A stretch of 64,000 bases of DNA from the UHGV virus genome UHGV-1440165; one strand, 5' to 3'. Position 1 is the stretch's first letter, and each line of letters starts with the position of its first letter. The notes beneath the pieces are model-generated. The model searched no databases and was not told where the DNA came from. It saw nothing but the letters and a program-made list of their open reading frames with translations. A program made the translations under genes and the position numbers. Of the stretch, positions 27,559 to 62,287 are shown in pieces. This DNA comes from a virus.

Positions 27559-27647
27559 GTTTGAGCCTCATGATTTAGTAACAACTCTTCAATAGAGATT
27601 AAATAATAAGCGCTTTATTCTTGAAAGTAAAGTTATTGAAATTAAAA

Positions 27648-36116: not shown

Positions 36117-36186
36117 AATAAAAACCCTTTCGTTATTAAGACCGTCTTCGCGGCATATTGCTGTTCTGACTGTGTAGTGAGAACAT

Positions 36187-36214
36187 AATATACTGCATTT
36201 TTCATAGATGTAAA
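36187..36214 (-). promoter_or_regulatory. Sigma70-like promoter candidate (minus strand)
   Basis: TTTACA-N16-TATATT read on the minus strand, upstream of the 36116 start. Confidence 0.3.
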
Positions 36215-46927: not shown

Positions 46928-47389
46928 TTACTCCGCGAGGGTGATCACAACCATATTTAAGACAGTGTCGACAGCGCGGCCTGTTTCCTCTTCGTGGAGG
47001 GTTTCGGCGCGGAGGTGAACGTCGGTGATGAAATTGTCTATGTGCATTGACGTCAGGTACGGGCGGTGCTGACATACAGGTCGATTAATCAGAACGTATT
47101 CGCGCAGAATGCCAAAATCTTTCTGCGAGCACCCGGTGGTATCGATGCGCAGGAAGCGCTCATTGTGACTCGTCTTTAGTTCAGTCACTTTGCCGAGGTA
47201 GACCAGAGGTCCATTGAGACCGATACGGAACATGACATCAACCACAGACTTGAAGATTTCGCGTTCAATCAGTGCGGTGGGTGACCAGCAGATCTCTTCT
47301 TTGTCGTCGGCGTACAGGGTGTCGATCACCAGAGGGAGCTGAATGTAACCGAAGTTGTGCAGTGGGTTGGTGAGTACTTTGTTTGTCAT
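46928..47389 (-). CDS. Hypothetical protein
   Basis: 153 aa; leader AAGGAACTATATC before ATG. Confidence 0.45.
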   Translation of the reverse strand: MTNKVLTNPLHNFGYIQLPLVIDTLYADDKEEICWSPTALIEREIFKSVVDVMFRIGLNGPLVYLGKVTELKTSHNERFLRIDTTGCSQKDFGILREYVLINRPVCQHRPYLTSMHIDNFITDVHLRAETLHEEETGRAVDTVLNMVVITLAE

Positions 47390-47400
47390 GATATAGTTCC

Positions 47401-47634
47401 TTATTTCACATATTCAAGGGCTTTGGACAGGCCAAAGCGAAGACGTTCACGAGCAACCTTCAATTCCTCTCGGTCTTCCCCTTTGTTGTCGTGGTTCATG
47501 ATAATTTGGTAGTTAACCGCCGCACGAAGGGCACGGAGTTCCCCCACCCAGTAGGCTTTGTCGGCAGCACAGCCTTTCTTGGCAACTTTGGCGTGATAAG
47601 TCATTGAGGCATTGTAGACTTCGGAGTCTGTCAT
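47401..47634 (-). CDS. Hypothetical protein
   Basis: ATG 47634 with leader AGGAACTACACC; ORF-track start is a TTG extension. Confidence 0.4.
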   Translation of the reverse strand: MTDSEVYNASMTYHAKVAKKGCAADKAYWVGELRALRAAVNYQIIMNHDNKGEDREELKVARERLRFGLSKALEYVK

Positions 47635-47712
47635 GGTGTAGTTCCTGCTGTTCAATTTGTGGCGAATGCCAATGAATTACTGGGAAGTATAGGGGAGGGT
47701 GTTTCAAAAGTA

Positions 47713-47733
47713 AAGCCCCTCATTGAGGGGCTT
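47713..47733 (-). terminator. Terminator hairpin
   Basis: aagcccctc-att-gaggggctt stem-loop. Confidence 0.55.
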
Positions 47734-47740
47734 TGGCAGA

Positions 47741-47965
47741 TCAGCGTTTGAGGCTGGCGGCGAGTCCACTAACGTCGGTCACGGTCTGGTCAGCGAGGAC
47801 GATAACAGGCATCGACATGCGCTGCTTACCCGTCAACTTCTGAAGTTCTTCCAGCTGATAATCCTTGTCCAGCTTCAGAATCTTGTGGTCCAGCCCTTTC
47901 ATCTTGCACAGATTTTCAGCTGTAACACACTGCGCGCAACCTTGTTTAGAGTAGATCGTAATCAT
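47741..47965 (-). CDS. nrdC: Glutaredoxin/thioredoxin-like redoxin (NrdC/NrdH-like)
   Basis: 74 aa; N-terminal MITIYSKQGCAQCV (CxxC); adjacent to nrdB. Confidence 0.65.
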   Translation of the reverse strand: MITIYSKQGCAQCVTAENLCKMKGLDHKILKLDKDYQLEELQKLTGKQRMSMPVIVLADQTVTDVSGLAASLKR

Positions 47966-47974
47966 TTCTCACCT

Positions 47975-49078
47975 TTAAGCGAATTTGAGACCGTCGGATA
48001 CTGAACCAGTCAGTACACCCATCAGATAATCAGGAGCTTCCGCTTCCTGCAACGCGTACTGCATTGTCTTATTATTTAGCCACTCGTTGATCCATGGCAC
48101 TGGGCATTCCTTACGTGGTTCCCCAGGATATGGGTGTCCGATAGCGCCCATGCGGTGGGTGAGCAACCAGTCTACCATATGGTGTAGGATCTTCGCGTTC
48201 AGGCCAAGCATGGAGCCGTCCTGGAACAGATAGTCAGCCCATTGCTTCTCCTGATTACCCACGTCCAAGAACATCTGGGTCATCTCACCACGCAGTTCCT
48301 CACGGATGATTTCGAAGTCAGGGTCCATACCAGGCAGGCGGTTCAGCAGAGTCTGGGTAAGGATCAAGTGGTCTTGCTCATCACGGGCGATCTGGCGGAT
48401 GATTTTAGCGTTGCCTTCCATCTTCTTCTGGAACTGCGTGAACGCCCAAGAGCATGCAAAGGACACGTAGAAGCGGATGCCTTCCAGTGTGTTGGCAGCA
48501 AACAGAGCACGCCAGAATGCGCGTTTGGCATTCATAATGTCTTCACGAGTAAAGGCGCGACCAGCCATACGCATACCACTGTAACGAACCATATCGTCAT
48601 AGTGAGTACTAATCTGATGAGCGCAGTCCACGATCTCTGCAACGTCTAACACGTGGTCAAACACGATACCAGGATCGTTCACAGTGTTTCGCAGGATGTG
48701 GGTGTACGACAGGGAGTGAATGGCTTCTTGACGTGTCCACTCAAGGACGGCGAACTGCATTTCAGGGGTAGACGCCCATGGACCAAACGCCTCGAACGGA
48801 GCCGCGCCCTGGATAGAATCCAGCATGGTCTGGCGCTTCAGGTTGCTTTCATAGATGCGCTTTTCAGCAGGTGTGAGTGTTGCATAGTCGGCCTTGTCCT
48901 TAGTGATGTCTACTTCTTCCGGACGCCAGAACTGGCTGAGGCCTTTCTCATACCACTTCTGTACGAATGGCCAAGCTACGATGTCATAGCGCTGAATGCT
49001 CACCGGATCGCCGAAGAACGGCAGGCCAGTGTTGTCAGAGCTTGGGTCGAATACGGAGAATTGTTTCTGTTCGCTCAT
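47975..49078 (-). CDS. nrdB: Ribonucleotide reductase small subunit NrdB (class Ia)
   Basis: 367 aa; ferritin-like di-iron pattern; adjacent to nrdA. Confidence 0.85.
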   Translation of the reverse strand: MSEQKQFSVFDPSSDNTGLPFFGDPVSIQRYDIVAWPFVQKWYEKGLSQFWRPEEVDITKDKADYATLTPAEKRIYESNLKRQTMLDSIQGAAPFEAFGPWASTPEMQFAVLEWTRQEAIHSLSYTHILRNTVNDPGIVFDHVLDVAEIVDCAHQISTHYDDMVRYSGMRMAGRAFTREDIMNAKRAFWRALFAANTLEGIRFYVSFACSWAFTQFQKKMEGNAKIIRQIARDEQDHLILTQTLLNRLPGMDPDFEIIREELRGEMTQMFLDVGNQEKQWADYLFQDGSMLGLNAKILHHMVDWLLTHRMGAIGHPYPGEPRKECPVPWINEWLNNKTMQYALQEAEAPDYLMGVLTGSVSDGLKFA

Positions 49079-49148
49079 GTTTCTTTCCTGATGAATAAGG
49101 GGTGATCTCTCACCCCTGATGATATAACGGTAGCAGGTTTAGACCAAC

Positions 49149-51428
49149 TCAGACAACACAGGTGTCACAAACTTCTTCAGCCTGTTTCAGCTCTTCGTCT
49201 TCCTTGGCGTCCTTGTTCGTGTTGTAATACAGAGTCTTGCCGCCCCACATATAGAAGGACAGGATATCCTGCATCATCTTGGCACGAGGAATTTTGCCAC
49301 CCGGGAACTTCTCTGGGTCATACCAGGTGTTGGTGCTGATGGCCTGGTCAACCCAGCGCTGAATAACAGCAGCGGTCTTCAGGTACTCGATGCATTCCAG
49401 GTCCCACTTCAGGTCATACAGCGGTCCAAGGGTCTCTACATCCGGAACAACCTGCTTGTAAGTGCCGTCCTTGCTACCCTTAATGCTTACCAAGCCCTTC
49501 GGCGGCTCAATGCCGTTCGTTGCGTTGAGGACTTGTGAGGAGCTTTCGGTAGGGGCTACTGCCAGCAGGGTGGCGTTGCGGATACCATAGGTCTTCAGAT
49601 CATCCTTCAGTTCTTCCCAATCCAGACCGTATGCCATGCCTTCCGGCTTCTTACCATTCGGCAGGATATCAAGTGGAAGCGGCTGAAGATCGGCAGTCAC
49701 CTGACCCATACCATGAATGGTCGCACGTTTGCATGCACCGAACTTCATCGCCAGACGGTTGGATGCCTTGACCAGATAGTAGTGTAGGTGCGCCATCCAC
49801 GCATCCAACATCTCGAGACCAGCTGGTGAGCCGTACCCCGTGAAGTTCTTGGCCAGGAAGTGAGCCACGTTCACGATACCAACACCCAGAGGGCGATAGT
49901 CTTCAACAGCTTTACGAGCCTGGATTGCCGGATAGTCTTGATATTCCAACAGCATGTCCAGCGCAGACACCAACACGAACGCCACGTCTTCCATCTCAGT
50001 CGGGTCTTCGAACGCCGTCAGGTTAAAGGAAGCCAGGGTACACAGAGCCACGCGCCCGTTTTCATCGTTGTACTGCTCAAACTCACGGGTCGGCAGGGCG
50101 ATTTCAAGACACAGGTTGGAGCTGTAGATGGTGTCGAGGTTGAATGGGCTGTATTCATTCATGTGATCGACAAATGCGATATAGATGCGGCCTGTGTCTG
50201 AACGCTGGTCTAACAGCATCTGGAACACTTCTTCAGCCTGCAGCTTCTTAGAACGCACCAGACCAGCATCGGCGGCCTTGATCATGTTCTCATACAGAGT
50301 ACGGAACTTGTCAACGTCGGCGAAGTATGCTTCGTACATTTCGCGGTTGTCTTTCGGGTCGAACAGATACAGAGGCTGCTTGGCAACCAGGCGCTCAAAC
50401 ATTACACGATTGATCTGAATACCGTAGTCGATACGACGTTCGCGGTTCTCTTCAGTACCACGGTTGTTCTTCAGAACAACGACGTCATCGAACTGGTAAT
50501 GCCACAGAGGGATATAAGCTGTTGCTGCACCACCACGAATGCCGCCCTGAGAGCACGACTTCAGCGCCCCAGTGAGGTACTTGATGAACGGGATCAGGCC
50601 TGTGTGAACCATCTCTCCGCCGCGAATAGGACTGCCAATCCCACGGATAGCCCCGATGTCGAAGCCGATACCCGCACGTTTGGACACATAGTCAACGATG
50701 GTCTTGGCTGTTGCGTTGATAGAATCCAGGGTGTCACCAGTTTTGATCAACACACAGGAACTGAACTGACGGGTTGGCGTACGAACGCCTGCCATGATCG
50801 GGGTTGGAAGACTGAACTTGCCTGTGCTGGCATATTCATAGAACTTCTTCACCATATCCAGGCGGCTGTCTTTGTCCCAGTTGGAGAACAACGCCATGGC
50901 GATGCCCATGTACATGACCTGTGGGGTTTCATAGAAGATCTTGCTGTCCTTCTTGGAACGGTCACGCAGCAGATACTTCTCTGTCAGCTGGCCCATGGCC
51001 GCCCAGGTGAAGTTCTTGTCACGTTTGTGGTTGATAACATCGTTCAGCTCGTTGAACTCTTCGGTAGTGTAGAGATCAAGGAACTCACGATCATACACGC
51101 GCTGTTTGATGTTCTTGGCGAAGATATCCAGCAGGTGAGGCGGCTTGTACTGGCCATAGGCGCTCTTACGCAGATCATATGACTTCAGACGAGCAGCCAC
51201 ATACTGGTAATTGGGTTTGTCTACGGAGATCAGTGAAGCCGCAGCCTGGATGAGGATATCCTGAATGCGATCTGTTCTCATGTTATCGGTGAACTGGATC
51301 TTCGATGCAGCAATCACCTCTGACATTGATACCCCAGGCAGACCATCACACGCACGGTCTACGACAGTGTGGAGTCTTTCAATATCAAAGGGGACAGAAG
51401 ATCCGTCCCGCTTAATGACGTTAATCAT
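49149..51428 (-). CDS. nrdA: Ribonucleotide reductase large subunit NrdA (class Ia)
   Basis: 759 aa; N-terminal ATP-cone (VIKRDGSSVPFDIERL), catalytic barrel, C-terminal Cys pair (CDTCVV). Confidence 0.9.
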   Translation of the reverse strand: MINVIKRDGSSVPFDIERLHTVVDRACDGLPGVSMSEVIAASKIQFTDNMRTDRIQDILIQAAASLISVDKPNYQYVAARLKSYDLRKSAYGQYKPPHLLDIFAKNIKQRVYDREFLDLYTTEEFNELNDVINHKRDKNFTWAAMGQLTEKYLLRDRSKKDSKIFYETPQVMYMGIAMALFSNWDKDSRLDMVKKFYEYASTGKFSLPTPIMAGVRTPTRQFSSCVLIKTGDTLDSINATAKTIVDYVSKRAGIGFDIGAIRGIGSPIRGGEMVHTGLIPFIKYLTGALKSCSQGGIRGGAATAYIPLWHYQFDDVVVLKNNRGTEENRERRIDYGIQINRVMFERLVAKQPLYLFDPKDNREMYEAYFADVDKFRTLYENMIKAADAGLVRSKKLQAEEVFQMLLDQRSDTGRIYIAFVDHMNEYSPFNLDTIYSSNLCLEIALPTREFEQYNDENGRVALCTLASFNLTAFEDPTEMEDVAFVLVSALDMLLEYQDYPAIQARKAVEDYRPLGVGIVNVAHFLAKNFTGYGSPAGLEMLDAWMAHLHYYLVKASNRLAMKFGACKRATIHGMGQVTADLQPLPLDILPNGKKPEGMAYGLDWEELKDDLKTYGIRNATLLAVAPTESSSQVLNATNGIEPPKGLVSIKGSKDGTYKQVVPDVETLGPLYDLKWDLECIEYLKTAAVIQRWVDQAISTNTWYDPEKFPGGKIPRAKMMQDILSFYMWGGKTLYYNTNKDAKEDEELKQAEEVCDTCVV

Positions 51429-51513
51429 AGCGATCCTCGGTTTGTGTTATAAGCAGGTTTTATTATACGCCGCCCTCGTAGATTGAAGGCGGCGGGGAGT
51501 GTTGATGAGTTAC

Positions 51514-52389
51514 TTAAATGTCGTACAGATCGTTGACTTCCAGCATCAGGCGGGTGAAGTCGCCGCGCCCGTTGCGATCAGACTTGTCGAACTCGATGAT
51601 GCTGAACGGCTGAACCCATTCAGGATATTCATCACCGACGCCAACACCATCGATCTTCAGGGTTCCGGCCTCCAGCTTGGTGTTGAAGTCACGGAAGGAC
51701 TGAACGTACTTCTCAAGAGCACTGTCACGCAGGCGCTTGTTGGGCTGTTTGATGTCACCGTTGACAAAGATGTAAGTCGAATCGGAAGCACGGGTCAGCA
51801 GGTTCTTCAGCTGCTCCATATCGCATTCCTGGGCTTCTTCAATGATCAGGAAGGTGTCATCAAAGGTCATACCCTTGATGGTCTCCAGATCCTGGATCTC
51901 AATGATCCGCTTCTCCCACAGATAGTTGAAGAACCCGTCGCTGCCCGTATCTGTCTTCAGCACCTTCTTCAGAGTCTGAATCAGGGGCATCAGATATGGC
52001 ATCAGCTTTTCGTATGTATCACCGGGGCGGAAGCCTGCAGTCTGGCCTGTTGGCAGCGGAGAGCGCGTGATGACGATCTTGCTGACGACTTTATCGATCA
52101 GGAGCTTGGCGGCGGCTGAGGCACCACAGTATGATTTACCTGTACCAGCAGGACCGATTGCGATGGTGAGGTTTTCTTCAAGAGCAGATTGATAAGCGAG
52201 GTTCTGATTCTCTGAGAGGCCATTGAACGGAGCGATTCTGAAGTCACCTTTGGAGAACTTCATCCAGTCATCTTCTTTCTGGACAGTTTCTTTCCGACGT
52301 GCTGACTTGGTTTTGCCCGCTGGCTTCATACTTACAACTTTGGTGGCAGATTGCATGGGAACCTTCCTATATCTAAGGGGTGTCATCAC
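51514..52389 (-). CDS. phoH: PhoH-like P-loop ATPase
   Basis: Walker A GPAGTGKS, Walker B FLIIEEAQ. Confidence 0.8.
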   Translation of the reverse strand: MMTPLRYRKVPMQSATKVVSMKPAGKTKSARRKETVQKEDDWMKFSKGDFRIAPFNGLSENQNLAYQSALEENLTIAIGPAGTGKSYCGASAAAKLLIDKVVSKIVITRSPLPTGQTAGFRPGDTYEKLMPYLMPLIQTLKKVLKTDTGSDGFFNYLWEKRIIEIQDLETIKGMTFDDTFLIIEEAQECDMEQLKNLLTRASDSTYIFVNGDIKQPNKRLRDSALEKYVQSFRDFNTKLEAGTLKIDGVGVGDEYPEWVQPFSIIEFDKSDRNGRGDFTRLMLEVNDLYDI

Positions 52390-52435
52390 CTTTAATTAAG
52401 GCGACACACCCAGCATACCCGAGGCTTGGATAAAG

Positions 52436-52454
52436 AAAAAGGCCGTTTCCGGCC
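52436..52454 (-). terminator. Rho-independent terminator (minus strand)
   Basis: ggccg-tttc-cggcc hairpin with a T run on the minus strand, just downstream of the endolysin stop. Confidence 0.6.
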
Positions 52455-52460
52455 TTTGAG

Positions 52461-53255
52461 TTAACTGAAGCTTTTGTATGCCGCTGCGAGCTTCGTGTCG
52501 TACTGGTTCTTGGCGTATGCTGGGCCATTGTAGCGCCGCGCAAACTCCGCCCAGTTCTTGTCTTTCAGAGCCTGCCAGAGCTTGGCATCGGCCTTGATGA
52601 ACTTCACGAATGCCAACAGATGAGCGCGTTCGCCTGTCAGGAAGTCATTGAACATCTCCTTGGCGTTGGCATACCCACAGACCTGGCAGTTGAAGCCCAT
52701 GATCTGGAAGAGGCCGTAAGAGGCGCTCTCGTACGCACAATCCTCATCGATGTTGATGGCCGCATGGAGTCGATCCAGTTCTGCGTCGCCGCCCGTGTAC
52801 CCGCCCGCAGCCGGACTGACCAATGTTGGATACATCTGACCCATGGCATTCGCCCGAGCCTGACCGAACTTCGCCATCAGTTTTTTGTACATGATGTGAC
52901 GTTCGAACAACGTTTTTATCTTGCCTGACTTGGTGAAGCCCGTGCCACGGGATTCGACCTGGTTGACCGCCTTCACAGAAGCGAGGTCGACACCCAGCTG
53001 ATTGGCCGCCTCGATAAGGTCGGCCTCAGTCAGGTGATCCTGATGCGCTTCCCCGGCGTTGCGAATGGCATAGGAGGTCTTTGGACCCACGATACCATCA
53101 ATGACAAGCCCCGCACCCGCCTGAACAGTCTTCACAGCGTTCTCTGTTGCCTTACCAAAGATGCCGTCAGCGACGAGAGTGAAGCCGATTTTGTTGAGGC
53201 TATCCTGAAGTGCCTTCACTTCAGTGCCACGGTTGCCAAGTTTTAGAATGGCCAT
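52461..53255 (-). CDS. Endolysin: peptidoglycan-binding domain plus N-acetylmuramidase-like catalytic domain
   Basis: PG_binding_1-like N-terminus (GTEVKALQDSLNKIGF...DGIFGKATENAVKTVQ); ATG 53255 with GGAGG SD. Confidence 0.7.
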   Translation of the reverse strand: MAILKLGNRGTEVKALQDSLNKIGFTLVADGIFGKATENAVKTVQAGAGLVIDGIVGPKTSYAIRNAGEAHQDHLTEADLIEAANQLGVDLASVKAVNQVESRGTGFTKSGKIKTLFERHIMYKKLMAKFGQARANAMGQMYPTLVSPAAGGYTGGDAELDRLHAAINIDEDCAYESASYGLFQIMGFNCQVCGYANAKEMFNDFLTGERAHLLAFVKFIKADAKLWQALKDKNWAEFARRYNGPAYAKNQYDTKLAAAYKSFS

Positions 53256-53314
53256 AAGAAAATACCTCCGCAATGAATGCGAAGGTATTTAAAGTGAAAG
53301 TGAACTACTTGAGA

Positions 53315-53593
53315 TTACATTCCAGATAAGAAGTGCGATATTTTCTCGACCATATGGCGAAGTCGGATATATGCTTCTGCTGCCGAAGGTTCGGATCTCA
53401 ACTCTAGAGGGATCCCGACGATATGAGCCGACCAGCGTTTGGTGGTTTGATGGTATGTTAACAGAACCCCAGAACGCCCCATCTTGATGTCTCGCCCTTC
53501 GACATTCATCAATACAAGCCAGTCATCGTGTCCTAACGATACTTTCAAATCCCATTTAGCCTGCCTGATCAATTCAATGTTAGCCATTTTCAT
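53315..53593 (-). CDS. Hypothetical protein
   Basis: 92-aa ORF. Confidence 0.4.
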   Translation of the reverse strand: MKMANIELIRQAKWDLKVSLGHDDWLVLMNVEGRDIKMGRSGVLLTYHQTTKRWSAHIVGIPLELRSEPSAAEAYIRLRHMVEKISHFLSGM

Positions 53594-53778
53594 CTTGCTA
53601 CCACCACAGGCATGACTTCGTTGAAGGACGTACGAACTTCAGTGTCGTACCCGTATTTTTCCAGGACTGCTAACATCGCCTGCTCGAGTTCCTCTTGGAA
53701 CTGAGGGAAGACTTTGTTCGGAATGCGGTCGGCAACCCAGAGAGCGCCTGAAGAGGCTTGAATGACCACACGGCTCAT
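53590..53778 (-). CDS. Hypothetical protein
   Basis: 62-aa ORF, coupled. Confidence 0.35.
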   Translation of the reverse strand: MSRVVIQASSGALWVADRIPNKVFPQFQEELEQAMLAVLEKYGYDTEVRTSFNEVMPVVVAR

Positions 53779-53975
53779 GCTACTTCCTCCCTCTGGAGTT
53801 TAGCGACAGCAGAGGCGATGTCCATCACTACTTCCTGGGCGTCCTTACAGAAGCCTACTGCCAGCCCGAGGGAGAAATCGAACGCGCTCGGGGAGCTTGA
53901 GTTCACCATGTTCGGGTTCCGGTTGAACAAAGTGAACGCGATATTGTTGATGCACATTTCGTATGCGGTCATCAT
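53775..53975 (-). CDS. Hypothetical protein
   Basis: 66-aa ORF, coupled. Confidence 0.35.
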   Translation of the reverse strand: MMTAYEMCINNIAFTLFNRNPNMVNSSSPSAFDFSLGLAVGFCKDAQEVVMDIASAVAKLQREEVA

Positions 53976-54025
53976 GACCTCCTACCAAAAATCTGAATAA
54001 GGAGGGGAGTTTCCTCCCCTTTCGA

Positions 54026-54514
54026 TTAAGCCAGTTTGCTTACCAGGGTCTGAACGTCTTTGGCGGTCAGTTTACCCATTTTGACGTACTGAGCTTTTGC
54101 TTCGCCACCAGCAGCTTTCACGATGTCGGTGTTGTCGTAGCCCTTCTTAGGGAAGACCATCACAGAGAAGGAACCGTTGTTCAGCGGGTTCAGCTGGATG
54201 CGACCTTTGCCGACTACGATGGTGCCGTAAGTTTCGGTGTTCGCTTCGACAACGTGGATGTCGTGGCCCAGGTCTTTCAGCATGCCAACTTTGTCGGCAG
54301 TCTTAGAAACCACAGCTTTGTCAACCACAACCTGCTCTACCAGGGTGAAGCCGTTAGTCGCTTTCACTTTACCGTTCAGCAGGTTCATGAAGGAAGTCTT
54401 GCCACCAGTGAAGCCAGCTGCCTGAGCGATGCGGAACATTTCAACTTTAGCAACTTCGGTGTTCAGTTCGAAAGAGATGGTGCCGTTGGTGATCAGAGTT
54501 TTGGTAGTAGCCAT
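54026..54514 (-). CDS. Hypothetical protein (possibly abundant virion or nucleoid protein)
   Basis: ATG 54514 (MATTKTL...) with AGGAATTACATC leader; 162 aa, Gly/Lys/Thr-rich. Confidence 0.5.
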   Translation of the reverse strand: MATTKTLITNGTISFELNTEVAKVEMFRIAQAAGFTGGKTSFMNLLNGKVKATNGFTLVEQVVVDKAVVSKTADKVGMLKDLGHDIHVVEANTETYGTIVVGKGRIQLNPLNNGSFSVMVFPKKGYDNTDIVKAAGGEAKAQYVKMGKLTAKDVQTLVSKLA

Positions 54515-54660
54515 GATGTAATTCCTCATAATGTAGTTGGTTCGTTTCACTTTTCATTCGGCGGTGTGTTGCCGCCCTATGTGAACTATAATAGGGCACC
54601 ATTATTGAAGAGTAAAGTCTTTTTCAATAATTTTTTAAAATATTTTTGAAGTATTTTAAA

Positions 54661-54681
54661 AGGCCTCATTCGACGAGGCCT
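54661..54681 (-). terminator. Terminator hairpin
   Basis: aggcctc-attcgac-gaggcct stem-loop. Confidence 0.5.
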
Positions 54682-54710
54682 GGAGGGAAGGTGATGTGAA
54701 GTAAAAAGTT

Positions 54711-54917
54711 TTAGCTCGGACGAAATCTTACAAACTCGCGAGCCAATTCGGCCTGCTCAGCACTGATGGGAACCCCATGAAAGTCTACCTGACCATTCTT
54801 CCAGCCGTGGATGAAACTCGGGGATTCATCGCCAGACAGGGCATACCCCTTGCGGGACATCTCATACCCGCGCTGGATCTCACTGTCGTCCAGCTTGTTC
54901 AGTTCTTCTAGAGTCAT
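54711..54917 (-). CDS. Hypothetical protein
   Basis: 68-aa ORF coupled to the primase stop. Confidence 0.4.
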   Translation of the reverse strand: MTLEELNKLDDSEIQRGYEMSRKGYALSGDESPSFIHGWKNGQVDFHGVPISAEQAELAREFVRFRPS

Positions 54918-55975
54918 CGTACTTTCCTCAGTTCGGCAAATTGTAATGATGCGGCCATACCCTGGTAGACGTTCTGAGCAATCAGCTTCAGGAGGTCTCG
55001 TATGGCCATGTTACCCTTCGAAGGCATAACCATATCGTTGATGTCCTTCCACGGAATGTTCGGTGGGAAGAGGACGACCTTGACACCTTTATCTATCATC
55101 TTCTGAATACCGTCGCACACTTGAGGGTTTCGGTACTGGTTGTCAGGGATATAGATGTCTCCCTTCACGCTCAGCAAATCCGCATCAGCTGATGCAAGAC
55201 AGTTGGGTAGGAACAGACTGTCAATCGGACCTTCCACGACCAGCTTGGTCTTGTGAATGTTCACCCGGTCTTCACCATACACCTTCGTGTCTTCATCGCG
55301 GGGCTTGACAGTAGAATACCGGAGCACACCATCACGCACTTCAAATGCACGCCCCTGAACGACCTTCATGCGACCATCCTGAGTCCAGAATGGGATTACC
55401 AGGCGCTCGTCATCGGGGATTTTCAGCTGCTTCTCAGGGTTCGTTTCGAACTGGAGTAGATCCTGGCGGAAGTGCTGGGTGTAATACAGGAGGGGCAACG
55501 TGCTCTCCGGCATTCCCCTGCCCTGTACGTACTGTCGAGCCTTATGGTCAGGCGGTAGCAGATCAAGTCTGAGCATATTGCCGAGGAGGCTCTCGTCGCG
55601 TTTAGCCTCCATTGAACCGATACGGGCTGTCTGTGTCAGCTTTGGCAAAGGCTTCAGCGCCGGGAGCGGCTTGGAAGATGAATCACCCAGCAGACGGAAC
55701 TTCTCCATGTTGTACTCGGTGGACAAGCGTTCATCAAACTTCTTCAGCCAGAACTCAAACGCCCAGCCGTTCATCTGGTTGCAGTTGTGGCACTTGAACC
55801 GGAAGCAGTCATGGTCCCGGTCGAAAAAGAAGTACCCACGACGCTTGTTGGCAGACTTCGTGGAGTCACCACACAGGGGGCAGCGGAAGTTCGCAACCGA
55901 TCCCACGCGCTCCCACTTGAACTTGTCAAGGCGCGGTGACACGTTGTTGATAAATTGCTCGTCAAGAAATTTCAT
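54914..55975 (-). CDS. 61: DNA primase (T4 gp61-like)
   Basis: Zinc ribbon RCPLCGDS...CHNC and TOPRIM VVEGPIDSLF as in gp61; ATG 55975 overlaps the upstream stop (TAATG). Confidence 0.85.
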   Translation of the reverse strand: MKFLDEQFINNVSPRLDKFKWERVGSVANFRCPLCGDSTKSANKRRGYFFFDRDHDCFRFKCHNCNQMNGWAFEFWLKKFDERLSTEYNMEKFRLLGDSSSKPLPALKPLPKLTQTARIGSMEAKRDESLLGNMLRLDLLPPDHKARQYVQGRGMPESTLPLLYYTQHFRQDLLQFETNPEKQLKIPDDERLVIPFWTQDGRMKVVQGRAFEVRDGVLRYSTVKPRDEDTKVYGEDRVNIHKTKLVVEGPIDSLFLPNCLASADADLLSVKGDIYIPDNQYRNPQVCDGIQKMIDKGVKVVLFPPNIPWKDINDMVMPSKGNMAIRDLLKLIAQNVYQGMAASLQFAELRKVR

Positions 55976-56586
55976 TAGATCTTCGGCCTCTGGAACACTT
56001 CGGTCACAGTATAGTCTACACCACGACTTTGAGCTATACACAGTTGTCGCCAAGCCCCATACAGGATATTCTGCTCCCCGGCAGTGTTGCGCTCAAAGTG
56101 GGCGAAGCCGTCAAGGAGTTCCATGTAGCTGCGCATATGCCGGGTAACGGTTCTTCCTCTCTTGATCTGTTCATCAAGATACTTCTGATAATGCTCTGGT
56201 GATGACAATGAAGAGTACTGCATGTCTGGCACATGAACTGGCATCAGGGACTTGCGGGGTGTGAAGTAGAACAACCCCCACTTTGGTGGCAGGTCTTCAA
56301 CCCTGATCACGTCCTGAGGGCAGACATAAAAGCGGTATGCGCCCATTCCTGTTGTGGGGTCCATCCGATGGGGCTTCTTCTTGTCAGTGAGGAAGTCGGC
56401 GCGGGACACCTTCACTTCCATCAGGACAGAGCACCCACCTGAACGAAACCCGATGGCATCAGGTGATTCTTTGTTGTCAAACGAATTTGGCTCGATGAAG
56501 ACAGCGCCGCAGTTCATGCGACCGCGCAGGTAGTTGGCCGCGATCTCACATCCTTCACGATGTGTCGGGGTAAAGATTTTGCTCAT
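55975..56586 (-). CDS. PD-(D/E)xK nuclease-fold protein (candidate)
   Basis: DAIGF ... VLMEVKV (D...ExK) pattern; ATG 56586 with AAGGAAAGGA SD. Confidence 0.4.
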   Translation of the reverse strand: MSKIFTPTHREGCEIAANYLRGRMNCGAVFIEPNSFDNKESPDAIGFRSGGCSVLMEVKVSRADFLTDKKKPHRMDPTTGMGAYRFYVCPQDVIRVEDLPPKWGLFYFTPRKSLMPVHVPDMQYSSLSSPEHYQKYLDEQIKRGRTVTRHMRSYMELLDGFAHFERNTAGEQNILYGAWRQLCIAQSRGVDYTVTEVFQRPKI

Positions 56587-56643
56587 TGTCCTTTCCTTTC
56601 GGTGAATAATGAGCAAAATTATATGCCTTTATTTTGTATTGAC

Positions 56644-56997
56644 TTACGACAGCTGCTTCAGTTTGTAGATCGTCTGATAACACAGCGTCTTGATTTCATC
56701 AAGCGTGTTCTGAAGGTGGGAGTCACACTGCCTGTAGATGCCATCGACGTCTATCACCACGCTGTTGACATAGGAGATAGGGTCTGGGTTATAGAGCTTG
56801 ATGTTCTCAAACGACGGAACGTACTGGCCACCCGCACCGATGTATGCTTCGGTAAACGTGTCCAGCAAGTCCTCCAGTTCCCCGTAGAACTCCCCGAGAG
56901 CTTTGTGCTTGGCGTAGGACGTTGTAACGAAGTGCAGGGCATGAGAGTGGGCTATAGCAAGCAGTCCACGGTTGATGAAAATACTCGCGTTAACCAT
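56644..56997 (-). CDS. Hypothetical protein
   Basis: 117-aa ORF. Confidence 0.45.
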   Translation of the reverse strand: MVNASIFINRGLLAIAHSHALHFVTTSYAKHKALGEFYGELEDLLDTFTEAYIGAGGQYVPSFENIKLYNPDPISYVNSVVIDVDGIYRQCDSHLQNTLDEIKTLCYQTIYKLKQLS

Positions 56998-57086
56998 GAT
57001 TTGTTTCCTGTATTGTGAACCATCTAGTATTTAGTGTTAATGGGTCCATGAGGTACTATATAGAATAATATAACTGGAGAACGAAA

Positions 57087-57692
57087 ATGAAAACTTTTCA
57101 AGACTTTCTGACCGAAGCCGCGCCGCCGATGTTTGTTCATATCAAGGCAGACAAGATCGGCAAATCCACCGAAGACAATATCGGTACTTTCTTGCGAGTT
57201 AGTGTTAGTGGCGACAAAGCCACCTTTGAAACCCCTGACGGTCGCAAGATAATCCTGACGGGTGCTAAAGACATCATCTCGGCATCTGGCCTGAAAGATG
57301 GGCAGTTTGCCAGTGCCCAGATGATTGACAAGGTTGATACTGACACCGCTGTCAAGTACAACAAATCAGGCAAATATATTGACTTGTTGGATGTCAAATC
57401 AGGTATGGGTAATTCCTTTATCTCCATTGACGGTAACAAGCAATGGAAAGAAATGACCGAAGGTGGTTGGTATGCGTATAAAGGCGGTCGCCCCGGCTTG
57501 GCTCGTTATAAGATCGCTATGGTTATGGGACCTCATGCGGGTATGCCATCTCCTGGGGAAGATATTGAATACGAGTTACCGAATGGCGGCAAAGAACGCG
57601 GAACCGTCATGAAACTGAATGGTGCATCCAAGCTGATGGATGTCAAAAACGAAAAAGGTAAGAAAGTACAAGTCAGTATGTATGTGAAATAA
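57087..57692 (+). CDS. IP-like internal head protein candidate
   Basis: N-terminus MKTFQDFLTEAAPP matches the T4 IP capsid-targeting consensus and the 99-329 N-terminus; Lys/Gly-rich 201 aa. Confidence 0.5.
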   Translation: MKTFQDFLTEAAPPMFVHIKADKIGKSTEDNIGTFLRVSVSGDKATFETPDGRKIILTGAKDIISASGLKDGQFASAQMIDKVDTDTAVKYNKSGKYIDLLDVKSGMGNSFISIDGNKQWKEMTEGGWYAYKGGRPGLARYKIAMVMGPHAGMPSPGEDIEYELPNGGKERGTVMKLNGASKLMDVKNEKGKKVQVSMYVK

Positions 57693-57697
57693 CAAAA

Positions 57698-57722
57698 CCC
57701 CGCGAAAAGCGGGGTTTATTTT
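57698..57722. terminator. Bidirectional rho-independent terminator
   Basis: ccccgc-gaaaa-gcgggg hairpin flanked by A and T runs. Confidence 0.65.
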
Positions 57723-57752
57723 ACGACTCACCCGGTTGCAAAGTTCACCCTT

Positions 57753-58322
57753 CTACACAGGCTTGACGCCGAGGAACTTGGCGATATCAGCAGCCAGGTT
57801 TTTACCCTTGCTGATGTCGTGTTCTTTACCGCCGACAGTAACGATTACATATGGATCGTCTTCACCGCCGAAGTTCACAGACACAGCCTTACCATGGCCA
57901 GGGATGCCAGAGTATTCGAACTCAGTACGACCACTCTTGCGAGACTTGCCAACACCCAGTGCTTTACCGATCATCTTGTCCATGTTCGCCAGTTCCTGAG
58001 CATAGGCTTCAGTCACCTGGCCTTTGTCAGCAGACTTGCCAAAGAAGAATTCGAAACCGTCATGGACAGCAACGACTTCCTGACCTTGGGAGATACCGTG
58101 AGTCTGGTCTGGGGTCAGTTTCACCTTGATGGTGTTGCCGTTGGTTAACTCCAGGTTGTAGACATCCGCCTGATTGTCAGGAGTGATCTGGGTCACGGTA
58201 GCACCGGAGCACCACTGAGTGCCATCGGCCTGTTTGGTGATGGATACGCTTTTGCCTTGGACACCAGCATGGGTCTGAGGCTGTGCAGCTTGCTCTTTAA
58301 AATATTCGATAAAAGGTTTCAT
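57753..58322 (-). CDS. IP-like internal head protein candidate
   Basis: ATG 58322 gives MKPFIEYFKEQAAQP (capsid-targeting-like) with GAGGAGA SD; Gly/Lys-rich. Confidence 0.45.
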   Translation of the reverse strand: MKPFIEYFKEQAAQPQTHAGVQGKSVSITKQADGTQWCSGATVTQITPDNQADVYNLELTNGNTIKVKLTPDQTHGISQGQEVVAVHDGFEFFFGKSADKGQVTEAYAQELANMDKMIGKALGVGKSRKSGRTEFEYSGIPGHGKAVSVNFGGEDDPYVIVTVGGKEHDISKGKNLAADIAKFLGVKPV

Positions 58323-58394
58323 TGGATCTCTCCTCGGGGATTTAGATGTAATTAGCCCCCGGAGGGGCTTTATTCTGTTCAAGACCAGCTAGTT

Positions 58395-60398
58395 TCACCA
58401 AACATTCAGAAATAGTGCATGACCCATACCGCCGTTTGACTGAAGAGACCATTTTCCTGTTTCTCTTCCCAGGCGTTCTATGTTGTTGAGTTGGTTTATC
58501 GACAATTCAGAAGAGTCGAATAATACCACATCACGTTTTTTGGGTTCTCTCAAATAAGGTCCGAGATCAATATCAATCATCCGGTTTATAAATTCTACTA
58601 CTTCGGCTTGTTTCTTTGGTAATGTGATATCCGGCCTGTTTGTCACTTTCTCCAAGCGTCTATTTTCTGCGCTTATCATGGACAGCATAATTTGTGTAAC
58701 TTTGCCGTCAGACAAGTTGTAATCGTTCCAAATCACTTCACCTTTATCCGTGATGGTTATATCATTCAAGAAAACCTGGTTTGGGTTGTATGTCTGACTT
58801 TTCAACTGTTGGAGGTTTCTGGAAAGATATTCCATTTTTGATGAGATTTCATCGATCATGGATTGAACAATATCTTTCTTCAAAGTAAGTTCATAGGTCT
58901 TCGGATTGTTCAGGGTACGCCCTTTCTGGGAGACAATTGGGGTGAATGCAACTTTGCCTTTGTCATGATAATAGGTTACGTTGGTTATCATAGAAGTACC
59001 GGCATATTTTCCGGTTTCAGGGAAATTGATTCCAGACCAAGTGATGGACATGCCGTTCTCTGTTTCCCCGAACACTGATGCGTTTTTCGGGATTCGCAGA
59101 TCTTTAGAACTGATTGCATTTGGATTCGGTTCTGCTGCTTTCGCCTGAGGAGCCAACTGATCGATAGCACCCTGTACCACTCCAGTCAATTTGGATGGTT
59201 TGGTGATGTCGATGTCACGGATTACGATAGGCTGGCCGATGGTTTGCCCACCAGGTCCCAATTCTGTAACTGCCTTGACTGTCAAGACAATCGGATCACT
59301 CCCTTTGATGATGCCACGGTTGATTGTGGCCACCACTGCAGATTTACCGCCGAATGTCAAGCTACCAGAGGCCATTGTCATAGAGGATACGCCGCGAAGA
59401 TCATTCACTTTGTAGAATGCGTTCACCAGAGCACGCCAGCGGTCTGTTGTGAGTTCGGCTGCCGTGGTTTGAGCAGGAGCCACAGCCCCAACGCCAAATT
59501 CAACATAAGCCACAATCTTACCACCAGACTTCAGTTCCCAACCCATGCCCTGGCGGTCAGAAGCCGCCATGATTTTGCGATCCACTTCCCCACGACCAAC
59601 ATACTCTTTGTCGAACACAGTTACCTGGGCGATGGTTTGGGTGCGGGCAATCTTCGCCATTGCGCCATCTTTGACCATGATGGCCAGGTCGTTGGAACTC
59701 AGAGTCACATCGTTGGCACCGACCACCTTCACAACAGAACTGAAGATGCCGTTGGATTTTGCCATGACGGAAATGTTCCAGTCTGGATTGTTGGGCGAAG
59801 CCCCCACATCCGGAGTATTGTTCTGAACCGGAACGTCGCCGACCTTGTCTGGATCATCCCAGGTGATGCCCTGCATCTTCGGACCGTCGAATACCTGAGC
59901 CGGATCTTTGCCCTTGCGGACCAGCCACACATAACCACGGTCAGGGACAGGCGCGTAAGTCAGGTCCATGACGTTCAGTTTCTGTTTCAAACCAGACTGA
60001 CGGATGATCTTTGGAATCAGGGTCATACCGCGATCCAGGGCTTTCTTGGAGAAGTTCACAGCATAGCCATCGATAGTCTTGCCAAGAGGAGTCGCCATGA
60101 ATTGTTTGGTCGCTTCGATCATGGAGGCGATGACGCGCATTGGGTTCTTGAAGCGAGCAATAGCGTCAGGGTAGACGGAGCCGCGCTTCTGGCCTATGAA
60201 GACCTGGCGGACATTCTTGCCCAACCCCTGTGGGGTATAGAACTGGATGCGGTATTCTTTTTCATCTTCGTCGATGAAGGTGAAGAACACATCGCCTGCG
60301 TTCTTCTTGCCCATGGTCAGCTCATACGGAGCGGAGTTGAACGCTTCGTCCAACTGATCTCTTTCCTGCATGAACTGGAGGAAACTTGGCTTTGACAT
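58395..60398 (-). CDS. Large hypothetical protein, possibly virion-packaged
   Basis: 667 aa; N-terminus MSKPSFLQFMQERDQLDE has L-x-E sites reminiscent of prohead-protease targeting; no catalytic motif identified. Confidence 0.5.
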   Translation of the reverse strand: MSKPSFLQFMQERDQLDEAFNSAPYELTMGKKNAGDVFFTFIDEDEKEYRIQFYTPQGLGKNVRQVFIGQKRGSVYPDAIARFKNPMRVIASMIEATKQFMATPLGKTIDGYAVNFSKKALDRGMTLIPKIIRQSGLKQKLNVMDLTYAPVPDRGYVWLVRKGKDPAQVFDGPKMQGITWDDPDKVGDVPVQNNTPDVGASPNNPDWNISVMAKSNGIFSSVVKVVGANDVTLSSNDLAIMVKDGAMAKIARTQTIAQVTVFDKEYVGRGEVDRKIMAASDRQGMGWELKSGGKIVAYVEFGVGAVAPAQTTAAELTTDRWRALVNAFYKVNDLRGVSSMTMASGSLTFGGKSAVVATINRGIIKGSDPIVLTVKAVTELGPGGQTIGQPIVIRDIDITKPSKLTGVVQGAIDQLAPQAKAAEPNPNAISSKDLRIPKNASVFGETENGMSITWSGINFPETGKYAGTSMITNVTYYHDKGKVAFTPIVSQKGRTLNNPKTYELTLKKDIVQSMIDEISSKMEYLSRNLQQLKSQTYNPNQVFLNDITITDKGEVIWNDYNLSDGKVTQIMLSMISAENRRLEKVTNRPDITLPKKQAEVVEFINRMIDIDLGPYLREPKKRDVVLFDSSELSINQLNNIERLGRETGKWSLQSNGGMGHALFLNVW

Positions 60399-60443
60399 TT
60401 TATATCTCCTGATGGGAATATGGCGGTTTCCCTTAATTAGCGA

Positions 60444-60671
60444 TCAGCCGCGCAATTGATACTGCATGATTCGTGAAAAGCTATCGCTTGTCAGGACGCA
60501 TCCTTCAACGATTTCCACAGAAAGATCCTGATCCACCCGATAACGCTTGCCATTCAAATCAAAGTAAACATAGAAATAACCGCGACGTTCCACCATATCC
60601 AGATTACTGATGCTTGAAACTTCTGGCAATTTGGTGATGATCGACTGAACGATATAAGACAACACATTCAT
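60444..60671 (-). CDS. Hypothetical protein
   Basis: ATG 60671 with leader CCGAAGGAACTATATC; ORF-track start is a TTG extension. Confidence 0.4.
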   Translation of the reverse strand: MNVLSYIVQSIITKLPEVSSISNLDMVERRGYFYVYFDLNGKRYRVDQDLSVEIVEGCVLTSDSFSRIMQYQLRG

Positions 60672-60693
60672 GATATAGTTCCTTCGGTTCAAA

Positions 60694-60927
60694 TTAAAGA
60701 GAGGCTTCAGATTTCACAACAGCTACCAGGGCGGCAATTTTCTTGCTGCTGGTAATCTTTTTACGGCTACCCTGGTTGCCCGCTTTCGGGGTGTTCAGCT
60801 GTACTACTGGGGTGTCAGTCTCGGCACCGTAAACGTGGTAAAAACCTTCACCTTCAACAGTAAATGTAGCGTGGGAAGCAAAGCGGCTAACTGCTGGTAC
60901 AAAGTAAAAACCGGTTACTGTAGTCAT
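60694..60927 (-). CDS. Hypothetical protein
   Basis: ATG 60927 with leader CGAAGGAACTACACC. Confidence 0.4.
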   Translation of the reverse strand: MTTVTGFYFVPAVSRFASHATFTVEGEGFYHVYGAETDTPVVQLNTPKAGNQGSRKKITSSKKIAALVAVVKSEASL

Positions 60928-61003
60928 GGTGTAGTTCCTTCGTTTCAAGTTGGTGTCGTACTGCTTATGTATTGAAGTATAGGGAAGGTTATTGAAGAAG
61001 TAA

Positions 61004-61024
61004 AGGGGCAAAAGCCCCTTTTAT
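61004..61024. terminator. Bidirectional terminator hairpin
   Basis: aggggc-aaaa-gcccct stem-loop followed by TTTTA. Confidence 0.55.
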
Positions 61025-61034
61025 TGAATTATTT

Positions 61035-61673
61035 TTACGGTGTTGGGTTCACAACAGGAATATGGAATCTGATTCCAGCGATGATGTCCTTCAGCTGAGG
61101 TTTCCAGCCAGCCACCAAGCGAGGGAGAGCGACAGAACCGGGCTGAACTAAAATGATGTCGCTGCCTGTGATGTTGTGCTGAGGGAATTGGGCAAGATAT
61201 TGCTCCATTGTGACGCCCGGATCAATCAGAACAGGACCAACATCAGATGATGCATAAGTCGCACCCAGACCGTCAACACCCCATGCCAAGATACCCCAGT
61301 CAGGGATGTTGGCTTCAGATGTGATGGTGAACCCAAACACGGTGTTCAGCGAGGTGAAGGAGTAGACGTCGTGAGTGATGTCATACACCAGATACCCCTT
61401 GGCCAGCATATCGGCAAAGATCGCGTCTGTGTCTCCCGCCGCTGGAGTCGGTACGGTAAACAACAGCTCACCAGCCGGAGGAACAGGATACGTGCCGAGG
61501 GCATAGAGGCACCATGCGTCAATGCACTTCTTAATGAATGTCTCTGACGCCACATAATCGGCAAGGCGAACCGTGCCTGAGTACTCGGATACGATGATGC
61601 CTTCCTTCGCGCCCTGTAGAGCAATGAAGACCAAGATATGTTCATATCCGGTCTGGGATGGAGTGATGTTCAT
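61035..61673 (-). CDS. Hypothetical protein
   Basis: 212-aa ORF. Confidence 0.5.
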   Translation of the reverse strand: MNITPSQTGYEHILVFIALQGAKEGIIVSEYSGTVRLADYVASETFIKKCIDAWCLYALGTYPVPPAGELLFTVPTPAAGDTDAIFADMLAKGYLVYDITHDVYSFTSLNTVFGFTITSEANIPDWGILAWGVDGLGATYASSDVGPVLIDPGVTMEQYLAQFPQHNITGSDIILVQPGSVALPRLVAGWKPQLKDIIAGIRFHIPVVNPTP

Positions 61674-62287
61674 TATCTTGTCCTCTTCAGTTTCTCTATT
61701 GTGCGCTTGTTCATGGCGATCACCTGAGGGTCCACCTCAGAGATTGAGCGCCCTTTGAAGGACACACATTTCTGAAGATATTTAGCTTTCTTCACGACGT
61801 CAGCAGCATATGCATTGGACGCAGAATTACGGGCGAAGCCAGCATTGTACGAGGAGAGGGATTTGCGGACATTCTGTTTGTGATAGGTCAACCAGAACTG
61901 CATCTCATCGAGGGCGGCCTGAGCAGCATATTCCTGATCAGTCAGCAGCTTGACAGCAACATTGGCATAACACTTGCGATTCTTACAACCTTCGCGATCA
62001 CCAACAGTCTTCACCTTATTCTGAAAGGCTCCCATGTTGGCCGCCTTGAGGCCGTATCGCATTGACACTACATCTTCACCAGCGCGGCTCTCTCGCCAGG
62101 ATATGGCAGCCAGGGTGTAACCAAGATCTTGTGTCTTGCCTATGTGATAGGCAGTTGCCAGCGTATTAAGTTGTTGCTCAGAGAAATCATAAACACATTG
62201 ACTTGTATTTTGGGAAGCGTGCACATTCCCGCTGGCAATGGTAAAGGTCACGGATAAGGCCATGGCCTTCAACGTTGTCATCGTCAT
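61673..62287 (-). CDS. Secreted lytic transglycosylase-like (SLT domain) protein
   Basis: Signal-peptide-like N-terminus; SLT-type motifs ISWRESRAG, MGAFQ, SYNAGF. Confidence 0.5.
   Translation of the reverse strand: MTMTTLKAMALSVTFTIASGNVHASQNTSQCVYDFSEQQLNTLATAYHIGKTQDLGYTLAAISWRESRAGEDVVSMRYGLKAANMGAFQNKVKTVGDREGCKNRKCYANVAVKLLTDQEYAAQAALDEMQFWLTYHKQNVRKSLSSYNAGFARNSASNAYAADVVKKAKYLQKCVSFKGRSISEVDPQVIAMNKRTIEKLKRTR

Follow-up and report, generated by a model that had tools for sequence, protein, structure and literature searches.

The locus and its genes

The window analysed here, a stretch of 64,000 nucleotides (nt) of the virus genome UHGV-1440165, contains a short sequence, called the leader below, that recurs directly before the start codons of five small genes. 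The region in question is transcribed from the minus strand and encodes proteins of nucleotide metabolism (NrdAB, glutaredoxin and PhoH), a primase, an endolysin and many small genes without known function. Megablast of positions 47000-55000 returned 93–94% identity over 91–94% of the query to the Salmonella phages pSal-SNUABM-02 and SKML-39 and the Shigella phages MK-13 and Ag3, together with weaker matches to about 280 Ackermannviridae of Salmonella, Klebsiella, Escherichia, Dickeya and Serratia. Given this identity to Agtrevirus phages, the window is part of an Agtrevirus-like, ViI-like myovirus genome of the Ackermannviridae. Searches of the whole window found neither Rfam families nor transfer RNA genes.

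The start-site leader

A search with AGGAAYTAYAYCATG, one mismatch being allowed, gave five matches in the window, all of them exact, all on the minus strand and each ending in the ATG of an open reading frame (ORF) (Table 1). The mean in 100 dinucleotide-preserving shuffles was 0.02 matches, and no shuffle reached five. The original prediction that the starts at 47389, 47634, 54514, 60671 and 60927 share a leader is confirmed at all five sites, as is its view that the conservation extends beyond the Shine-Dalgarno (SD) sequence: the likeness reaches about 25–30 nt upstream, and the conserved unit of about 25 nt can be written as yTTGAAAnGnAGGAACTAYAYC-ATG. A repeat finder independently recovered a 30-nt family, D2, at 47630-47659, 60667-60696 and 60923-60952 (CAAATTGAACAGCAGGAACTACACCATGAC, TAATTTGAACCGAAGGAACTATATCATGAA and CAACTTGAAACGAAGGAACTACACCATGAC). 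In two of the five window copies the bases upstream of the SD differ from the consensus.

This genome does not use the motif as its ordinary ribosome-binding site. GGA stands at −11 to −9 in 32 ATG-initiated ORFs of at least 60 amino acids (aa), of which four carry the spacer ACTAYAYY, and no other 8-mer spacer recurs among them; the remaining gene starts in the window have varied GAGG, AGGAG or GGAGG sites. Against the possibility that the motif is no commoner than expected of a strong SD with an AT-rich spacer stand the five matches for 0.02 expected and a spacer that is unique to this family of starts.

A tandem duplicate had been proposed at about 54515-54550. It is real and degenerate: positions 54527-54550 read GTGAAACGAACCAACTACATTATG, lie immediately 5' of AGGAATTACATCATG and have the GG of the SD swapped for CC. 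The degenerate copy is kept in Ag3, in the Kuttervirus Se-H and in the Taipeivirus cp18. Since in cp18 the upstream ATG of the tandem pair is out of frame and opens a frame of three codons only, the second ATG (54514) is the real start of the 162-aa gene. The N-termini MNRRNYIM and KRRNYTM do derive from the leader, as originally supposed, because the ORF lister runs through it to an upstream in-frame TTG (ORFs 60444..60692 and 60694..61011).

Folding of the five leaders gave no shared or significant structure relative to shuffled controls (z −1.05 to +1.31). When the spacer was compared by eye with the 3' end of 16S ribosomal RNA, no complementarity beyond AAGGA was seen. The leader was also considered as an internal sigma-70 promoter (TTGAAT-N18-TATCAT, 47388-47417), which fits one copy only and was judged a chance match. 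Host mimicry was ruled out, the 30-nt leader having no match in 5,426 complete Escherichia coli genomes.

A separate feature of some starts is ATGAGG, an upstream AUG fused to the SD 13–15 nt before the real start, which occurs on the minus strand of the window at 27559-27582 and 54512-54529 and in cp18 at 114499 and 140394. These sites read …AAATCATGAGGCTCAAAC-ATG and …CATTATGAGGAATTACATC-ATG, and in cp18 the upstream AUG opens mini-ORFs of 2–3 codons (ATG AGG TGA and ATG AGG ATT TAA). The arrangement may be a scar left by recombination or a short upstream ORF with a regulatory role.

Table 1. Coordinates of the motif copies, leaders, predicted promoters and predicted hairpins in the window.
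Feature	Position	Strand	Sequence	Remarks
Motif copy	47387-47401	minus	AGGAACTATATCATG	
Motif copy	47632-47646	minus	AGGAACTACACCATG	
Motif copy	54512-54526	minus	AGGAATTACATCATG	
Motif copy	60669-60683	minus	AGGAACTATATCATG	
Motif copy	60925-60939	minus	AGGAACTACACCATG	
Leader L1	47632..47659	minus	CAAATTGAACAGCAGGAACTACACC+ATG	Start region of 77-aa gene 47401..47634; weight matrix 36.7 bits
Leader L2	47387..47414	minus	…GTGAAATAAGGAACTATATC+ATG	Before 153-aa gene 46928..47389; no promoter; 18.5 bits
Leader variant L3	54512..54526	minus	AGGAATTACATC+ATG	True start of 162-aa gene 54026..54514
Degenerate tandem leader	54527..54550	minus	GTGAAACGAACCAACTACATT+ATG	GG of SD changed to CC; 19.1 bits
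Leader L4	60669..60696	minus	TAATTTGAACCGAAGGAACTATATC+ATG	Before 75-aa gene 60444..60671; no promoter; 36.1 bits
Leader L5	60925..60952	minus	CAACTTGAAACGAAGGAACTACACC+ATG	Start region of 77-aa ORFan 60694..60927; 37.9 bits
Cassette A promoter	47686..47714	minus	TTTACT-N17-TATACT	Sequence match; repeat family D10
Cassette A terminator hairpin	47712..47734	minus	AAAGCCCCTCAATGAGGGGCTTT	After glutaredoxin gene
Cassette B promoter	60976..61004	minus	TTTACT-N17-TATACT	Sigma-70/T4-early-type; repeat family D10; conserved across four genera
Cassette B terminator hairpin	61002..61022	minus	AAAAGGGGCTTTTGCCCCTTT	3' arm and T-run overlap the −35 hexamer
Cassette C promoter	54588..54616	minus	TTTACT-N17-TATTAT	
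Cassette C upstream terminator hairpin	54658..54680	minus	GGCCTCGTCGAATGAGGCC+TTTT	
Cassette C hairpin in 5' untranslated region	54560..54577	minus	GGGCGG-loop-CCGCC	Stem kept, loop varies in Ag3, Se-H and cp18

A terminator-promoter-leader cassette

At three of the starts (47634, 54514 and 60927) the leader is the end of a unit of about 110 nt, composed of a GC hairpin terminator, the promoter TTTACT-N17-TATACT or TATTAT about 50 nt upstream of the start, and a leader of about 45 nt; a GC hairpin with a run of T precedes each of the three promoters. Repeat family D10 spans the promoters upstream of two of these copies, in cassettes A and B. That the motif is the tail of a larger cassette conserved throughout the family had escaped the original prediction. 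The hairpin of cassette B keeps its stem while its loop varies, and phage IME250 carries a compensatory change (GGGAC...GTCCC). The additional hairpin in the 5' untranslated region of the 162-aa gene may act as a stabiliser of the messenger RNA (mRNA) 5' end or as a regulatory hairpin.

The copies at 47389 and 60671 have neither promoter nor hairpin, and each stands before the second of two genes that form a unit. The start region reads …ACTACACC-ATG for the first gene of both units and …ACTATATC-ATG for the second. The presence of the last 25 nt or so before second genes, without a promoter, marks the leader as a module in its own right. Conversely, T4-early-type promoters without the conserved leader are seen on the minus strand at 27603-27631 (TTTACT-N17-TTATTAT) and 36185-36214 (TTTACA-N18-TATTAT), before a 397-aa gene and a gene of about 304–338 aa, respectively. 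Promoter-only and leader-only sites thus both exist, which argues that promoter and leader are separable modules.

Conservation across the Ackermannviridae

By BLAST, the 30-nt leader of the 60927 start is 100% identical in Klebsiella Taipeivirus phages and 90–97% identical in Limestonevirus, Kuttervirus and Serratia phages. Up to four places per genome are matched, and over the Ackermannviridae of Klebsiella, Dickeya, Serratia, Salmonella and Escherichia the leader is 90–100% identical. Alignment of 19 sites from seven genomes yielded a consensus made up of a hairpin, CTTTACTTcTTCAATAA-N-CCTATACTTC, AnTnCATAAGCAGTACGACACCAAc, TTGAAAcGAAGGAACTAYAYC and ATG. With a position weight matrix built from 11 distinct sites and a cut-off of 8 bits, five strong copies and one degenerate copy were counted in the window (64 kilobases, kb), six and one in cp18 (156 kb), and five and two in Se-H (160 kb), or about 5–8 leader copies per genome. 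Each strong hit runs straight into the ATG of an ORF of 74–185 aa, and shuffled genomes gave only a handful of hits, all just above the cut-off.

At the orthologous locus that follows the DUF7270 gene, the intergenic cassette of 107 nt is 85–87% identical between the window and Taipeivirus, whereas the last 300 nt of the DUF7270 coding sequence upstream of it are only 71–74% identical. Together with the hairpin stem kept by compensatory change, this excess over adjacent coding sequence shows the non-coding cassette to be under purifying selection.

The exact pattern TGAAMNNMAGGAACTAYAYYATG has 58 matches in IMG/VR (2.9 million viral contigs), nearly all of them in Ackermannviridae genomes of 150–164 kb or in fragments resembling them. 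It also occurs once each in seven uncultivated IMG/VR contigs without nucleotide similarity to Ackermannviridae. Four of these have a GC content of 36% (L024, L048, L060 and L065) and carry an extended −10 promoter (TGATATACT) upstream of the leader and a 164-aa gene downstream; two of the four, L024 and L048, have protein-level matches to window genes, including NrdB- and glutaredoxin-like ones in L048. The matches in the other three (L020, L034 and L036; GC 51–54%) may be due to chance.

Unrelated genes behind one leader

The ORFs downstream of exact-pattern matches fall into at least 16 clusters that are unrelated by BLASTP, and a single Pfam assignment, DenV, was obtained among them. For the leader-driven genes, Pfam, PHROGs and NCBIfam returned 'unknown function' only, except for DenV in Kuttervirus. 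Paralogy of the downstream genes was ruled out by protein comparison and clustering. Among 48 distinct upstream contexts, 31 have a promoter with the end of its −10 hexamer about 50 nt away from the ATG (in one subtype, 40 nt). The remainder lie inside operons, show an extended −10, or consist of TATAAAT and a hairpin before denV. One family of 118–122 aa follows the cassette at two different places: in Taipeivirus next to the major capsid gene, downstream of it, and in several Kuttervirus genomes downstream of DUF7270.

The leader of the Kuttervirus denV homologue lies downstream of a T4-late-promoter-like sequence, CTATAAATTA, and a GC hairpin rather than an early-type promoter (Se-H, about 20447-20560 minus, L010; IMG/VR L047, L052, L061, L066 and L071).

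In the window, the 77-aa ORFan at 60694-60927 (minus, MTTVTGFYF…) has only a weak hit to PHROG 13302 (E 3e-9) and no tblastn match in 50,697 phage records, the 93%-identical relatives included. The 75-aa gene 60444..60671 (minus) matches Dickeya phages only, at 45–59% identity (45–52% for JA11, JA13, JA29 and JA33). Homologues of the 77-aa gene 47401..47634 (minus) are patchy and include the jumbo phages Pectobacterium CBB and Cronobacter GAP32 at 46–51%. The next-best homologues of 47401-47634 and 60444-60671 in unrelated jumbo phages suggest that small genes have been exchanged across phage families.

Gene gain, loss and replacement at the leader

Comparison with close relatives revealed three indel or replacement events with junctions in the leader. 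The gene of 77–79 aa between leaders L1 and L2 occurs in the window and MK-13 but is missing from Ag3, where a cassette identical to window positions 47714-47635 directly adjoins the 153-aa gene. The 77-aa gene of the window is flanked by the direct repeat GGAACTAYAYCATGAC; in MK-13 this repeat is perfect over 16 nt, GGAACTATATCATGAC, and Ag3 retains a single copy of it. Kuttervirus has the 77-aa gene too, although its 153-aa gene is preceded by an ordinary ribosome-binding site. Since the sequence 5' of the hairpin 47712..47734 in MK-13 is unrelated to that of the window, the hairpin is also a junction.

Set against pSal-SNUABM-02, its nearest relative, the window shows 93% identity as far as the ATG at 60925-60927, after which 479 unrelated nt follow before 100% identity resumes; the left breakpoint of this replacement is at the leader and ATG. 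The replaced segment (60444..60922, minus) holds the 77-aa ORFan, an internal leader copy and the 75-aa gene, and pSal-SNUABM-02 has 361 nt in its place, with a 111-aa gene and a hairpin. The content of the cassette B locus also varies among other relatives. LIMEstone1 and IME250 carry the gene MTQLKNF, cp18 carries MKIILDAY, and Ag3 has MKIILDAY, a leader copy and then MTQLKNF, while the window has the ORFan, a leader copy and then the 75-aa gene. The identical 30 nt of L4, TAATTTGAACCGAAGGAACTATATCATGA, precede gp099 (MTQLKNF) in Ag3 and a different 75-aa gene in the window. From these end-states we infer that small genes have been inserted, deleted or replaced via recombination at the leader. 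The suggestion that the leader is the footprint of a recombined module boundary is borne out by these junctions and by the at least 16 unrelated families behind it.

A cassette resembling the PeSL elements of T4-type phages

It is likely that the motif is the translation-initiation module of a regulatory cassette that is specific to the Ackermannviridae and built like the promoter-early stem-loop (PeSL) elements of T4-type phages. This reading draws together the anatomy of the element, its fixed register at start codons, a conservation across genera above that of adjacent coding sequence, the unrelated genes attached to it and the indel junctions inside it. Four parts would act in succession. 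A GC-rich intrinsic-terminator hairpin would insulate the downstream gene from upstream transcription, and a host-RNA-polymerase promoter of the T4-early type, TTTACT-N17-TATACT, would drive a leader of about 45 nt without significant predicted structure, which closes with the SD AAGGA and a fixed 8-nt spacer ACTAYAYC before the ATG, usually with A at +4. Whichever small accessory gene stands behind the cassette would then be expressed, probably early because the promoter is of the T4-early type, and probably with high translational efficiency because of AAGGA, the 8-nt spacer and the A at +4. The last 25 nt or so would also act without a promoter, before the second gene of a unit. Because the same sequence precedes many unrelated genes, the leader copies may in addition serve as short repeats for the phage homologous-recombination machinery. 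Recombination between copies, within a genome or between co-infecting relatives, would delete, insert or replace the gene between them and leave an intact leader at the junction.

PeSL elements are mobile regulatory cassettes of T4-type phages (Arbiol et al. 2010, PMC2839356; Comeau et al. 2014, PMC4122927). They combine a stem-loop terminator with a sigma-70-like early promoter and a downstream SD and ATG, a construction shared by the present element with its hairpins at 61002-61022, 47712-47734 and 54658-54680. The T4/PST promoter consensus TTTACW-N17-TAYWAT (PMC4122927, PMC2839356) is matched by the candidate promoters at 60976-61004, 47686-47714 and 54588-54616, and just as PeSLs end in SD and ATG (PMC4122927, PMC2839356), all copies here end in AAGGAAC-N6-ATG at an ORF start. 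Both elements have many dispersed copies beside small ORFans that differ between close relatives, and each also shows 'half' or degraded copies. In PeSLs, crossovers have been mapped to the interval from the −10 hexamer to the ATG (PMC4122927, PMC2839356), which is also where the junctions in the leader lie here. PeSL copies recombine into excised mini-circles during infection, as detected by inverse polymerase chain reaction (PMC2839356). The two nevertheless differ in several respects. PeSLs belong to Straboviridae and the present element to Ackermannviridae, there are fewer copies per genome here (about 5–8), and conservation is strongest in the 25-nt start-site leader, which reaches 100% identity between genera and is present also without a promoter.

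A further parallel is the leader of T7 gene 10 (AAGGAGATATACATATG), which supports strong phage-gene expression and serves one gene. It likewise has an AAGGA-type SD and an A/U-rich spacer of about 8 nt with TATA/TACA, whereas the present leader is repeated before many unrelated genes and marks recombination junctions.

Several points weigh against this interpretation. Promoter use, timing and translational strength were all deduced from sequence, and recombination was read from end-states rather than seen happening. The right-hand breakpoint of the 479-nt replacement does not lie at a leader copy. Same-class promoters without the leader (27631 and 36214), together with leaders without a promoter, make the 'cassette' modular rather than one fixed unit. 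In predicted folding the leader is not significantly less structured than shuffled controls. Furthermore, selection for efficient translation alone is not an obvious cause of about 20 near-invariant positions, including TTGAA upstream of the SD, and a trans-acting factor or a recent copy-and-paste spread may be needed too.

What is unusual about the element is the almost invariant leader that is able to stand alone. In the paper on CBA120, the early promoters of ViI-like phages were described as not identifiable by informatics (PMC3184105). Nothing relevant on the motif string or on early promoters or transcriptomes of Ackermannviridae was present in the searched literature, which likewise held no description of a PeSL-like element for Ackermannviridae or ViI-like phages. 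The cassette provides about 5–8 candidate early transcription units per genome, each with a T4-early-type promoter and a defined leader, and offers a concrete account of how small accessory genes may be gained and lost in phages used for biocontrol and therapy. As a compact expression module conserved in the family, it could serve for the insertion of payload genes into Ackermannviridae genomes.

Alternative explanations

The leader has also been viewed as a translational operator, in which a phage repressor, most plausibly a RegA homologue, would bind the 25 nt, block the ribosome and shut off the accessory genes together. Such a role would be compatible with the cassette, and it is considered unlikely. 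A RegA homologue is encoded in Ackermannviridae (located in Se-H and cp18; 42–45% identical to T4 RegA over 98% of its length, E about 1e-24), and by-eye comparison with PMC3014915 suggests that the RNA-binding residues T18, R21 and W81 of T4 RegA are kept in the Se-H protein. In T4, RegA recognises about 30 mRNAs through unstructured RNA overlapping the AUG or immediately 5' of it (PMC3014915), which is the position of the motif, here too before a prereplicative type of gene set; the conservation of the leader also goes well beyond what SD pairing needs. Of the RegA comparison raised in the original prediction, the lack of a significant fold agrees with such an operator, whereas the sequence does not resemble RegA sites. 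Known sites lack a strict consensus and are rich in A+U, with poly(A) at the 5' side (AAAAUUGUUAUGUAA) or, for RB69, UAA repeats (PMC3014915), but the near-invariant leader AAGGAACUAYAYCAUG contains 3–5 C and no A or U tract. Moreover, the start regions of the regA homologue and of the homologues of genes 45, 44 and 62, the classical RegA targets, are without the motif, and the regA gene lies outside the window. A diverged RegA with a different sequence specificity could account for the difference.

More generally, the unexplained degree of leader conservation leaves room for a dedicated trans-acting factor. The leader might be a recognition 'socket' for a phage factor of this kind, whether a diverged RegA homologue, an RNase or a DNA-level function in recombination or homing, and this is thought quite unlikely. 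If it were so, any captured gene would be wired automatically into one coordinated post-transcriptional programme and perhaps be actively mobilised, amounting to a gene-cassette system that is integron-like in logic and built on a translation-initiation region.

An RNA-processing site, the other role proposed for the motif, fares poorly and is judged very improbable. The 11-nt GGAACUAYAYC would be an endoribonuclease cleavage signal that inactivates early mRNAs in the SD, in parallel to T4 RegB acting with ribosomal protein S1 on GGAGRAYARAA. T4 RegB sites span 11 nt starting at a GGA inside the SDs of early genes (PMC3014915), and the motif agrees with them in location, length and class of gene. 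In several relatives, a gene some 700 nt upstream of cassette B is annotated as 'RegB'. However, the core here is GGAA instead of GGAG/U, and the 3' part (CUAYAYC) contains pyrimidines and is not A-rich. The annotated gene (61673..62287) has no similarity to T4 RegB (E 0.22), no Pfam RegB hit and no match to a solved structure, and among the tblastn matches listed for T4 RegB there were only T4-type genomes and no Ackermannviridae record, so that no RegB homologue was detected in the family. The candidate at 61673-62287 (minus, 204 aa) was rejected as RegB and is instead a homologue of T4 Vs.1 (31% identity, E 5e-19), the neighbour of regB in T4.

Finally, the view that nothing special is involved, only a strong SD and AT-rich spacer recurring by chance or the shared 5' ends of paralogous genes, is refuted and retains a negligible probability: AAGGA with an 8-nt A/U-rich spacer does have the look of an efficient enterobacterial ribosome-binding site and two copies do stray upstream of the SD, but the five matches far exceed the expected 0.02, the spacer is not common to other GGA-type starts, the exact 23-nt pattern occurs, among 2.9 million contigs, essentially in a single phage family and is absent from 5,426 E. 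coli genomes, and the downstream proteins are unrelated.

Annotation of neighbouring genes

The label 'putative RegB' or 'endoribonuclease RegB family' is attached to the Vs.1 homologue in LIMEstone1 (ORF086), Coodle and EspM4VN, and this mis-annotation has spread between records. The 204-aa gene 61673-62287 also gives a borderline hit to SLT transglycosylase. For annotation, the analysis fixes the true start codons of several small genes and exposes the propagated 'RegB' label. In addition, a direct repeat lies inside the 162-aa gene, where 54233-54264 and 54455-54486 are 72% identical over 32 nt and 222 nt (74 codons) apart, a possible sign that this conserved protein, whose function is unknown, contains an internal two-domain duplication.

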